DNA of 64,000 bases from Candidatus Aldehydirespirator sp. (GTDB lineage Bacteria > Actinomycetota > Acidimicrobiia > Acidimicrobiales > Aldehydirespiratoraceae). Below the pieces are notes generated by a model. It was not told the origin of the DNA. It worked only from the letters and a program-made list of their open reading frames with translations, and did no database searches. A program made the position numbers and the translations under genes. Location of the stretch: the NCBI GenBank assembly GCA_965261105.1, contig CBDHCM010000006.1, positions 1,540,405-1,604,404 of the forward strand, given 5' to 3'. Position 1 is the first letter of the stretch. Every line of letters starts with the position of its first letter. Below are positions 1,037-54,157 of this stretch, one piece after another.

Positions 1037-1086
1037 TTCCCGCTCTTGTTCGCTGCGCTCACGGGCCGCTCGGGCCACGGCCTCGC
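1037..1086 (+). repeat. Intergenic repeat family, core module (copy A)
   Basis: TTCCCGCTCTTGTTCGCTGCGCTCACGGGCCGCTCGGGCCACGGCCTCGC recurs at 9547-9596 (+), 13470-13519 (-) and 54086-54135 (-), with a degenerate copy at 46997-47069. A tail-like motif TTCCGCTCGGCCTCT lies at 1122-1136. Confidence 0.9.
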
Positions 1087-9506: not shown

Positions 9507-9650
9507 CGCGGACAGGTGGTGAGCGCCTCGCGGTCAGGGGTTGTGATTCCCGCTCTTGTTCGCTGCGCTCACGGGCCGCTCGGGCCACGGCCTCGCTGTC
9601 GAATTCGCTATCGCGACGACGATTCGCGGCCCCATCCGCTCGGCCTCTTG
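9507..9650 (+). repeat. Intergenic repeat family, full-length copy B (arm + core + tail modules)
   Basis: The arm is at 9507-9546 and contains GTGAGCGC, whose complement GCGCTCAC lies in the core. The core is at 9547-9596. The tail at 9601-9650 (…CGCGACGACGATTCGCGGCCCCATCCGCTCGGCCTCTTGG) resembles 15765-15812. Confidence 0.85.
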
Positions 9651-13480: not shown

Positions 13481-13560
13481 GCCCGAGCGGCCGGTGAGCG
13501 CAGCGAACAAGAGCGGGAAACACAACCCCTCACCGCGAGGCGCTCACCACCGGTCCGCGC
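13470..13560 (-). repeat. Intergenic repeat family, copy C (core + arm), inverted relative to copy B
   Basis: The reverse complement of 9507-9596 matches 13470-13560 with about 5 mismatches in ~91 nt, aligned by eye. Confidence 0.9.
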
Positions 13561-15817: not shown

Positions 15818-16408
15818 TCACAGCGTGCCCTTGGTGGAGGGCAGGGACGCGCCCTCCACGCGGACCGCGTCGCGGATGGCCCGGGCAACGCCCTTGAACG
15901 AGGCTTCCACGATGTGGTGGGTGTTGCGGCCCCGGCGCATCACGATGTGCAGCGTGACCGCGGCCGCGGTGGCGAAGGCCCGCCAGAACTCCTCGGCCAG
16001 CTGCGGGTCGAAGGGCGGATCCCCGAGGATCTTCTCTCCGGGGAAGTCCACGTCGTAGTGCAGGAAGGGCCGGCCCGAAAGGTCGAGAACAACCTCCACC
16101 GCGGCCTCGTCGAGAGGCACGGTGATGCTGGCGAAGCGGCGTACTCCGGCCTTGTCGCCCAGAGCCTCGCGGAACGCCTGGCCCAGCACGATGCCGGTGT
16201 CCTCGACAGTGTGGTGAGCGTCCACCGCGAGGTCGCCAGCGGCCTGCAGAGACAGGCCGAATCCGCCGTGGCGGGCAAGCTGGTCGAGCATGTGGTCGAA
16301 GAAGGGCAGGCCGGTGGAGACCTCGGCGGTGCCGTCGCCGTCGAGGTCGAGGCTGAGCTCGATGCGGGTTTCCCTGGTGGAGCGGGAGCGGGTGGAGGTG
16401 CGGCTCAT
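15818..16408 (-). CDS. hisB: Imidazoleglycerol-phosphate dehydratase
   Basis: MSRTSTRSRSTRETRIELSLDLDGDG...GLPFFDHMLDQLARHGGF...DAHHTVEDTGIVLGQAF is canonical HisB. Confidence 0.95.
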   Translation of the reverse strand: MSRTSTRSRSTRETRIELSLDLDGDGTAEVSTGLPFFDHMLDQLARHGGFGLSLQAAGDLAVDAHHTVEDTGIVLGQAFREALGDKAGVRRFASITVPLDEAAVEVVLDLSGRPFLHYDVDFPGEKILGDPPFDPQLAEEFWRAFATAAAVTLHIVMRRGRNTHHIVEASFKGVARAIRDAVRVEGASLPSTKGTL

Positions 16409-16455
16409 GTCCGGGTTTCCTTGGTGGAGCGGGAGCGGGTGGAGGTGCGACTCAT
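16366..16455. repeat. 47-bp-period duplication of the hisB start region; the upstream copy is a 16-codon mini-ORF bridging hisC and hisB
   Basis: 16366-16408 and 16413-16455 differ at 2 positions. On the minus strand, ATG 16455 reads MSRTSTRSRSTKETRT-TGA (16407-16405). The hisC stop and mini-ORF start share ATGA, and the mini-ORF stop and hisB start share ATGA. Confidence 0.85.
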
Positions 16456-20374: not shown

Positions 20375-20779
20375 ATGAAGAGACTGCATACTGGGGGCAT
20401 GGAGCCCCGCGTATGGGTCAACCCCGGTCAGCCGCAGACGCTGTACATCGCCCATATGCTGATGTACTTCCGGGGCGGCATATCGCTAGTGTTCGGCCTC
20501 CTGTTCGTACCGTCCTTCACCGTGTCCTCGCTGCTGTTCGCGGTGGGCAACGTGGTGGCCGCGTTCGGCATCGCCAACGAGAGGCGATGGGGCTACAAGC
20601 TCGGCGTTGCCGTGGCATCGCTTACCCTGGTCATCGCGCTGCTCCTGCTGGTTCGCAGCTTCGGCCGGCTGTGGGGCGACCTGATCGGCCTGTTGTTCGA
20701 CGTCGCATTGGTTGCGCTGCTGCTGCACCCCATCAGCCGCAGTTACCAGCGATCCTGGCCCAAGAAGCAGCGCAGGTGA
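20375..20779 (+). CDS. Small integral membrane protein, unknown function
   Basis: MKRLHTGGMEPRVWVNPGQPQTLYIAHMLMYFRGGISLVFGLLFVPSF... has 3-4 hydrophobic helices. An alternative start is ATG 20399. Confidence 0.55.
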   Translation: MKRLHTGGMEPRVWVNPGQPQTLYIAHMLMYFRGGISLVFGLLFVPSFTVSSLLFAVGNVVAAFGIANERRWGYKLGVAVASLTLVIALLLLVRSFGRLWGDLIGLLFDVALVALLLHPISRSYQRSWPKKQRR

Positions 20780-20880
20780 GCGAAGTGCCCTCCGGCGCGG
20801 ACAAGCGTCGGTGAGGGAGTTTCCCTACGGCGCGGACAAGCGCCGGTGAGGGGGTTTCCCCACGGCGCGGACAAGCGCCG
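20776..20880 (+). repeat. Three tandem 35-bp units at the menG start; the first two are 12-codon mini-ORFs chained by GTGA overlaps
   Basis: Units lie at 20776-20810, 20811-20845 and 20846-20880. Translations are VSEVPSGADKRR-stop, VREFPYGADKRR-stop and VRGFPHGADKRR-AVREMFD (MenG). Each TGA overlaps the next GTG, and the first GTG overlaps the TGA of the upstream membrane gene. Confidence 0.85.
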
Positions 20881-21541
20881 GGCCGTGCGGGAGATGTTCG
20901 ACGCCATCGCGCCCCGCTACGACCTGGTGAACCGGGTCATGACACTGCGCCTCGACGTGGCCTGGCGGCGCCGGACCGTGCGCGAGCTGGCCCTGCCCGC
21001 GGGATCGCTGGTGGCCGACCTGGCCTGCGGCACGGGCGACCTCTGCCGGGAGCTGGACCGCCAGGGCCACTTCGGTGTCGGCTTCGACTTCTCGATGGGA
21101 ATGCTGCGAGCGGCCGCCGGCGACACCGCCGGCGGTTCTCCGCTGGTCAACGCCGACGTGCTCGAGCTGCCCCTGCCAGATGGCGCGCTGGACGGCGCGA
21201 CCTGCGGCTTCGCCCTGCGCAACCTCACCGCGGTGCCGCCGCTGCTGGCCGAGTTGGCCCGCGTGCTGCGACCCGGCGGGCGCATCGGCCTTCTGGAGGT
21301 GGACCGGCCCTCCCACCCGATCCTGCGCTGGGGCCACGGCCTGTACTTCGGCCGGGTGGTTCCCCTTATCGGGGCTGCGCTGTCGGACCGGGACGCGTAC
21401 CGCTACCTGCCCGAGTCGGTCGCCTACCTGCCCTCTTGGGACGATTTGCTCAAAGAGCTGCAGTCCAGCGGCTTCACCGATGTGCGTCACCACCGCCTGA
21501 GTGCGGGCATCGCCCAGCTCGTCGCGGCCACACGACGCTGA
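20846..21541 (+). CDS. menG: Demethylmenaquinone methyltransferase (UbiE/MenG family)
   Basis: ADKRRAVREMFDAIAPRYDLVNRVMTLRLDVAWRR...VADLACGTGDL (SAM motif)...LRPGGRIGLLEV. Confidence 0.9.
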   Translation: MRGFPHGADKRRAVREMFDAIAPRYDLVNRVMTLRLDVAWRRRTVRELALPAGSLVADLACGTGDLCRELDRQGHFGVGFDFSMGMLRAAAGDTAGGSPLVNADVLELPLPDGALDGATCGFALRNLTAVPPLLAELARVLRPGGRIGLLEVDRPSHPILRWGHGLYFGRVVPLIGAALSDRDAYRYLPESVAYLPSWDDLLKELQSSGFTDVRHHRLSAGIAQLVAATRR

Positions 21542-21557: not shown

Positions 21558-21603
21558 GGGCGGACCGGCCCGACTGCCCCCGGCGGACCGGCCCGACTGC
21601 CCC
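21558..21603. repeat. 23-bp tandem duplication just downstream of menG
   Basis: GGCGGACCGGCCCGACTGCCCCC occurs at 21558-21580 and again at 21581-21603. Confidence 0.85.
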
Positions 21604-21697
21604 CGGCGTGCGGGCCAGCGCTCCAAGGCCGGCCATGCGGATGCGTTGGCACTGCGACCGACCACTACGAGCGAAAGGACAATAACTCGATAGAGCA

Positions 21698-46996: not shown

Positions 46997-47069
46997 GGTT
47001 CCCGCTCGCCTTCGCTGCGCTCACGGGCCGCTCGGGCCCGGGTTCCCGCTCGCCTTCGCTCGGCCTCTA
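46997..47069 (+). repeat. Intergenic repeat family, degenerate copy E with an internal 44-bp-period repeat
   Basis: GGTTCCCGCTCGCCTTCGCT occurs at 46997-47016 and 47041-47060, flanking GCGCTCACGGGCCGCTCGGGCC. The tail TTCGCTCGGCCTCT overlaps the rluD stop. Confidence 0.75.
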
Positions 47070-54085: not shown

Positions 54086-54157
54086 GCGAGGCCGTGGCCC
54101 GAGCGGCCCGTGAGCGCAGCGAACAAGAGCGGGAATCACAACCCTTCACCGTGAGGC
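54086..54157 (-). repeat. Intergenic repeat family, copy D (core + partial arm) between ftsQ and ftsZ
   Basis: GCGAGGCCGTGGCCCGAGCGGCCCGTGAGCGCAGCGAACAAGAGCGGGAATCACAACCCTTCACCGTGAGGC. Confidence 0.9.

Follow-up and report, generated by a model that had tools for sequence, protein, structure and literature searches.

The demethylmenaquinone methyltransferase gene menG of this Candidatus Aldehydirespirator genome begins inside a short tandem array. We consider it likely that this array is a real, species-variable minisatellite that was born by slippage and is tolerated by way of a stop-start relay, i.e., a series of small overlapping ORFs through which the two flanking genes stay coupled.

Three copies of the menG start

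Positions 20776-20880 of the window (the whole stretch of 64,000 nt that was analysed) read directly as three head-to-tail 35-bp units, each with GTGA at its start (Table 1). Tandem Repeats Finder (TRF) places the array at 20769-20881 on the forward strand, with a period of 35, 3.2 copies, 87% matches, and a score of 163. Pairwise comparison over the 35 positions gives 6 differences between units 1 and 2, 8 between units 1 and 3, and 2 between units 2 and 3. The 14-mer GGCGCGGACAAGCG has three occurrences in the window as against 0.22 expected from shuffles, and the three-unit structure is far beyond chance. When the 22-nt core of the unit was searched for across the 4.95-Mb genome with up to three mismatches, it was found at the array locus only, the one further match (with three mismatches) being at control level. 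A dispersed repeat family is thereby ruled out as the identity of the 35-bp unit.

The period of 35 is of the form 3n-1, and each copy is therefore a 12-codon ORF whose TGA overlaps the next GTG. GTGA overlaps stand at 20776, 20811, and 20846, and the stop-start chain can be traced from the small membrane-protein gene upstream into menG. An earlier note on this DNA had described a triplicated menG start, the translations of both mini-ORFs and of MenG listed in Table 1, a period equal to a 39-nt ORF minus a 4-nt overlap, and overlaps that are regenerated by the duplication itself, and all of this is borne out by the sequence and, for the three units, by TRF as well. Its count of four consecutive overlaps, however, has to be lowered to three, as mshD and the membrane-protein gene are separated by a 29-nt gap and do not overlap.

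Table 1. Features of the menG junction and related arrays; positions are those of the window unless a C6 coordinate is given.
Feature	Position	Strand	Description
Small membrane-protein gene	20399-20779	+	126 aa; TGA at 20777-20779 overlaps the first GTG of the array
Unit 1	20776-20810	+	GTGAGCGAAGTGCCCTCCGGCGCGGACAAGCGTCG
Unit 2	20811-20845	+	GTGAGGGAGTTTCCCTACGGCGCGGACAAGCGCCG
Unit 3	20846-20880	+	GTGAGGGGGTTTCCCCACGGCGCGGACAAGCGCCG
Mini-ORF 1	20776-20814	+	VSEVPSGADKRR-stop; 12 codons; linked by overlap to the upstream TGA (through its GTG) and to the next GTG (through its TGA)
Mini-ORF 2	20811-20849	+	VREFPYGADKRR-stop; 12 codons; TGA overlaps the menG GTG
menG	20846-21541	+	VRGFPHGADKRRAVREMFD...; 231 aa; start taken as the GTG of unit 3
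Unit-1 hairpin (predicted)	20792-20811	+	CCGGCGC-GGACAA-GCGUCGG; stem ends on the G of the next GTG
hisB-start array	16366-16455 (C6:1556859)	-	47 bp x2; 16-codon relay ORF MSRTSTRSRSTKETRT into a 196-aa gene; chain intact
Further mini-ORF-chain junction arrays, own genome	C6:313534-313734, 316132-316255, 603951, 2722737, 3928625-3928831		
Further mini-ORF-chain junction arrays, own genome	C6:4275111-4275321, 4276434-4276617, 4293479-4293575, 1801221		

The 231-aa ORF is a UbiE/MenG-family demethylmenaquinone methyltransferase. It matches PF01209 with an E value of 2e-39 (135.6 bits against a cut-off of 20.1) and TIGR01934 with 180.7 bits against a cut-off of 158.35, the latter profile beginning at residue 14. 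In relatives with a single unit, the codons after the GTG encode LPSGA(A/D)KRRAVREMFD, and in other families of the order LPxG(D/E)xK is retained but spelled with different codons. In this stretch, genus members that are distantly related show mostly third-position changes, e.g., CCC/CCA, TCC/TCG, AAG/AAA, and CGC/CGA. Because LPxGxxK is conserved across the order at the protein level while its codons change synonymously, the stretch is evidently translated. These comparisons make the unit-3 GTG at 20846, which the earlier note had taken as the MenG start, the best-supported candidate, over the downstream GTG at 20886 or ATG at 20895.

The 126-aa product of the gene upstream has a weak, sub-threshold match to DUF2127 in a profile search. 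The same 126-aa gene is called upstream of menG on the ENA contig L056, and the C-terminus of the membrane protein, ...SRxYQRxWPK..., is conserved beside menG throughout the genus. In most species of the genus the two genes are joined by a -4 or 0 junction. No such membrane-protein gene adjoining menG was found in other families of the order. The 126-aa protein could be a membrane partner of MenG.

The junction in related genomes

We compared the junction in all 39 Candidatus Aldehydirespirator (Acidimicrobiales) genomes that our search returned, together with ENA contigs. A single unit is found in most species of the genus, and the membrane-protein gene and menG then either overlap as GTGA or abut as TAG/GTG or TAA/GTG. 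The 35-bp array is limited to a clade in which MenG is 87-96% identical to that of the window. The earlier note had proposed comparing genomes for variation in copy number, and such variation is found at the menG junction: there are two 35-bp units in L050 (a second contig, apparently of the G015 MAG), three in the genome of the window and in the ENA contig L058, five in the ENA contig L056, and six in G017 (OZ244866.1). A search of contig records for the window's own MenG or membrane protein found no record, and a metagenome scan with the junction pattern retrieved four unrelated low-GC contigs, which were rejected as chance matches within another gene.

The first unit, GTGAGCGAAGTG..., is almost identical in most carriers of the array (nearly identical in G017, L057, and L058); it retains the S-E...S codons and looks ancestral. 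Later units are more alike within a genome than they are to their counterparts elsewhere, as illustrated by the TTT in units 2 and 3 here versus CTG in other genomes. This homogenisation within genomes indicates ongoing expansion, contraction, or conversion. As judged from these sequences, the menG array is old, real, and variable between relatives.

The stop-start chain is intact in five of the five regular arrays (L050, the window's genome, L058, L056, and G017). In G017, one junction has changed from GTGA to GAGA, and the resulting 47-codon ORF nonetheless ends on a GTGA. The ENA ERZ25071132 contig L057 (locus 608-745) carries an irregular array of 35+36+22+35 bp, in which the second GTG opens a 329-codon ORF covering all of menG in another frame, so that the chain is broken. 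L057 thus offers a ready-made natural test case for the importance of a relay. In L055, whose MenG is the nearest to that of the window (96% identity), a dispersed element takes the place of the array and the chain is interrupted. Of about 40 related loci, about 9 lack a chain and have a spacer of 5-236 nt from the upstream stop to menG.

Sister lineages show two further kinds of change at the same place, and three states can thus be recognised at the menG junction: the relay array, an in-frame extension of menG, and a dispersed element with a bridging ORF. In-frame extensions arise from 39-bp duplications of the menG start, which are present three times in G003 (VSNLSTGADKRRA x3) and twice each in G020 and G046 (one copy of the latter being degenerate). 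Among public proteins, the 39-bp pattern occurs four times in P0010 and twice each in P0009, P0045, P0052, P0054, and P0073. Since these duplications of the menG start are independent, the site is a duplication hot spot. The sister-lineage duplications (G003, G020, P0009, and P0010) resemble the array in their locus and palindromic context, and probably in their slippage mechanism. In contrast to the array, they have a period of 3n, and they add 13-39 residues to the N-terminus of MenG rather than forming separate mini-ORFs.

The dispersed element, with the core CCGCTCTTGTTCGCTGCGCTCAC, lies between the membrane-protein gene and menG in G001, G007, G011, G015:C102, G046, and L055; the loci concerned in relatives include L007 (G015), L015 (G001), L018, L028, L035, and L055. 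Its ORF of 62 codons (G015) or 50 codons (G001) abuts the upstream TAG, and the TGA of that ORF overlaps the menG GTG, which is the true MIRU layout. The CCGCTCTTGTTCGCTGCGCTCAC element also occurs five times in the window (1040-1062, 9550-9572, 13494-13516, 47002-47024, and 54110-54132). This dispersed element of an Acidimicrobiales genus is MIRU-like and is distinct from the 35-bp array.

Probable slippage and the wider class of junction arrays

The sequence of single-unit relatives indicates how the array may have arisen. These relatives already have AGCGC.GG twice, 35 bp apart. The first copy is formed by the last codons of the membrane-protein gene, Q-R-R/G (CAG CGC GGG/AGG), and the second by MenG codons 10-12, K-R-R (AAG CGC CGG). 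The junction observed between units, AAGCGYCGG/TGAG, is exactly the product predicted from a slip between the two AGCGC.GG copies. In the window, the 8-mer AGCGCAGG (20769-20776) recurs as AGCGTCGG or AGCGCCGG at 20804-20811, 20839-20846, and 20874-20881. The array was likely born, on this evidence, by replication slippage at the AGCGCNGG microhomology. Replication would have slipped between the 8-nt direct repeats AGCGCNGG, 35 bp apart and inside a palindromic, hairpin-prone stretch, and would have copied the first 35 bp of menG plus the GTGA junction; subsequent slippage would have added and removed units. For the 39-bp arrays, the sequence is consistent with a slip between GGTG(A/C)G motifs.

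Each unit holds the hairpin CGGCGC-GGACAA-GCGCCG. Besides the predicted hairpin of unit 1 (Table 1), equivalent hairpins are predicted at 20828-20845 and 20863-20880, and the predicted fold places every GTGA in a single-stranded linker of 4 nt that is flanked by GC-rich hairpins. The segment 20825-20900 folds at -46.1 kcal/mol (z -4.3), and a long hairpin over the first ~50 nt of menG is predicted here as well as in three of the four single-unit relatives tested. Such a palindromic, hairpin-prone segment plausibly promotes slippage, to go by the predicted folds. Strict covariation was considered for units 2 and 3, which differ by A/G and T/C, and was discounted, as the small hairpin is kept only via a register shift. 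An Rfam scan returned a miRNA-family match that was sub-threshold (20.1 bits against a gathering score of 70) and was not accepted.

The menG array belongs to a wider class. When the whole genome was scanned with TRF, many gene junctions proved to have arrays in which mini-ORF chains are regenerated (Table 1). Among all TRF arrays of at least 12 bp, periods of class 1 and class 2 (mod 3) are about equally frequent, at 242 and 284, respectively. We selected junction arrays independently of their period, by requiring that an NTGA junction be duplicated, that the first junction close an open frame of at least 60 codons, that the last junction open an ORF of at least 80 codons, and that both frames have a GC3 of at least 0.8. 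These criteria leave 16 arrays, the menG array and the hisB array included. Their period is of class 2 in 13, of class 1 in 3, and of class 0 in none. The binomial probability of 13 class-2 periods among 16 is 1.2e-4 against an expectation of 1/3, or 0.011 against 1/2 when only non-multiples of 3 are considered, in a test that rests on ORF and GC3 heuristics rather than on curated gene calls and has n=16.

The stop-start chain runs unbroken into the downstream gene in 15 of the 16 arrays. Two of the three class-1 arrays keep it, either because a unit holds a pair of relay ORFs or because reading continues across two units. C6:314404 is the one array with a broken chain; it consists of two copies of 73 bp that are 100% identical, and it is therefore young. 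Duplicated junctions seem to persist only where ribosomes can be relayed, i.e., there would be a survivorship filter. The further junction arrays of this genome also include one of 35 bp x5.7 (MTVVAGLDGDRG repeated) before a gene starting MTLYVDTSALLKRY, one of 35 bp x5.9 with 100% identity, and one with a 61-bp unit that holds two relay ORFs.

Proposed ribosome traffic through the array and known counterparts

In the ancestral state that we propose, there would have been one unit, with the menG GTG overlapping the TGA of the membrane-protein gene as GTGA. Given this overlap, the membrane-protein gene and menG would have been translationally coupled. In the present array, ribosomes would finish the membrane-protein gene, reinitiate at 20776, and terminate at 20812-20814; a second round would start at 20811 and end at 20847-20849, and a third start, at 20846, would yield MenG, for a total of three termination-reinitiation events. 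Because both flanking genes and their coupling are preserved, a duplication that shifts the frame could survive inside the operon. The mini-peptides would be by-products, and copy number may weaken or tune MenG output, with no selected function being required. The array, in other words, probably survives because each copy can hand ribosomes to the next.

Several features of the junction bear on this relay. The 16-17 nt that precede each of the three GTGs contain no Shine-Dalgarno (GGAGG-like) motif, and no promoter-like or terminator-like sites were found between the membrane-protein gene and menG. The GAGGGAG in units 2 and 3 was considered as a Shine-Dalgarno site and rejected, as no start codon lies 5-10 nt downstream of it. 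On the predicted fold, the hairpin-linker context of each GTGA should disfavour de novo 30S binding and should suit a terminating ribosome. Overlaps of -4 nt give tight termination-reinitiation coupling, and short ORFs can have the "delivery" of ribosomes as their sole role (PMC12548453; PMC6728339). Two other ways of using the units were rejected. Production of one protein by serial -1 frameshifting would need a slippery site, and there is none; in addition, each frame is closed by a stop overlapping a start. The mini-peptides were not accepted as functional, since their sequences are copies of the MenG N-terminus that differ between units and species.

The relay is well supported as the mechanism by which the array is tolerated. 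That ribosomes use the chain in this particular genome is something we infer from the sequence, and a relay there is probable rather than necessary. The relatives with spacers of 5-236 nt between the genes, as well as the broken array of L057, imply that MenG can evidently be expressed without an unbroken relay. Part of the integrity of the chain also comes cheaply. The DNA has 70% G+C, and alternative frames seldom hold stops; because stops are rare in those frames, some chains stay open at little cost, as with the 47-codon ORF of G017.

In an alternative that we regard as unlikely overall, the array is real and forms a neutral intergenic spacer whose chain is not meaningfully used. MenG would then be initiated de novo at 20846, 20886, or 20895, and the overlaps would be a geometric by-product of duplicating a 35-bp GTGA segment. 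menG is indeed intact in the uncoupled relatives, in those with element insertions, and next to the broken array of L057, gene callers begin some orthologues at MFD (the 214-aa P0013, P0093, and P0101), and the late beginning of TIGR01934 implies that the domain does not need the first 12 residues. However, the genome-wide excess of 3n-1 periods and the 15 intact chains out of 16 would be unexpected if the chain were irrelevant. The missing Shine-Dalgarno motif and the predicted hairpins on both sides of the start also argue against de novo initiation, and since LPxGxxK before MFD is conserved as protein, initiation should take place at or before the unit-3 GTG. That most species of the genus retain a junction of -4 or 0 likewise speaks against a neutral spacer.

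Alternatively, the array could be a selected expression dial, or contingency locus. Each reinitiation would pass on a fraction of the ribosomes, and the gain or loss of units would heritably scale MenG, and hence menaquinone methylation, relative to the membrane protein, with the variability itself maintained by selection. The spread of 2 to 6 units among close relatives, the homogenisation of units within genomes as a sign of ongoing turnover, and the hairpin-linker-hairpin context at every junction are consistent with such a dial. We nevertheless consider it very unlikely. Many unrelated genes in the same genome have arrays of this type, for which a mutational process combined with a survivorship filter fits better than locus-specific selection does, and coupling efficiency can saturate (PMC12548453). 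It is extremely improbable that the triplication is an assembly artefact absent from the organism, for although the genome is metagenome-assembled (6 contigs), the units differ at 2-8 of 35 positions and span only 105 bp, so that the assembly is unambiguous, and homologous arrays that share the first unit and have 2, 3, 5, and 6 units are present in independent assemblies of relatives.

With a tolerated, slippage-born relay array as the preferred reading, the nearest known kind is the MIRU-VNTR of mycobacteria, and we would classify the array as a junction minisatellite of local origin with a MIRU-like mode of action. According to PMC12548453 (citing Supply et al. 1997) and PMC3184786, MIRUs are short intercistronic tandem units whose small ORFs overlap the neighbouring genes at -4 nt, and they are thought to permit insertion with little effect on expression. 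As described there, MIRU-VNTRs of Mycobacterium share with the array short GC-rich tandem units between genes, small ORFs overlapping their neighbours at -4 nt, variation in copy number, and the phylum Actinomycetota. The genes around MIRU-VNTRs are co-transcribed, as those around the menG array are predicted to be. MIRUs are one dispersed, apparently mobile family at ~40-50 loci, in contrast to the 35-bp unit, which is present at the menG locus only; and the MIRU unit measures 40-100 bp, compared with 35 bp here, the unit of the array being made from menG's own first 12 codons.

Two more general kinds of system are similar in part. Bacterial slipped-strand VNTRs and minisatellites share with the array head-to-tail units, microhomology at the borders, expansion and contraction by lineage, and concerted evolution. 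Within coding regions, however, VNTR periods other than 3n normally cause frameshifts, whereas the menG array spans a junction and its 3n-1 period leaves both genes intact. Coupling at ATGA or GTGA and ribosome-delivering short ORFs (PMC6728339, PMC12548453) resemble the array in their -4 nt geometry, in having no Shine-Dalgarno motif, and in that handing the ribosome onward is the short ORF's only plausible role. Unlike ordinary coupling of this type, menG has three duplication-made junctions in series. We found no experimental tests of serial coupling relays in the literature on termination-reinitiation (PMC6728339, PMC12548453).

If ribosomes are truly relayed through serial 12-codon ORFs, then these arrays are natural experiments on termination-reinitiation, with 2-6 repeats in close relatives and with natural "mutants" at hand in the form of the GTGA to GAGA junction, the chain-breaking irregular array, and the in-frame 39-bp versions. 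The 3n-1 bias amounts to population-genetic evidence for selection on translational coupling in an uncultured actinobacterium, and it suggests how MIRU-type repeats can sit harmlessly in operons. A broader proposal, which we put forward as speculative and rather improbable as a whole, is that in this Acidimicrobiales clade termination-reinitiation matters so much for gene expression that it filters junction duplications, such that only relay-compatible arrays (3n-1, or two relays per unit) persist, and that these act both as heritable dials of the ratio between neighbouring proteins and as raw material for dispersed MIRU-like elements. The arrays also account for the tiny spurious ORFs and the ambiguity of start calls that annotation yields at gene junctions of these genomes.

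The MenG homologues P0061 (281 aa) and P0108 (250 aa) have insertions of ~50 and ~20 residues, respectively, inside the methyltransferase domain. The P0061 insertion has VSAANKRGEH. Similar ORFs, VSAANKSG..., are found in this genome in the 45-bp arrays at C6:401535 and C6:1507423, and by this resemblance the insertion may represent a repeat element that was inserted in frame into a coding sequence. In the window, a perfect 23-bp x2.2 tandem repeat, GGCGGACCGGCCCGACTGCCCCC, lies at 21559-21608, 18 nt past the menG stop. The GGCGGACCGGCCCGACTGCCCCC motif is single in the stretch of G017 that was read, and variable repeats thus flank menG on both sides.
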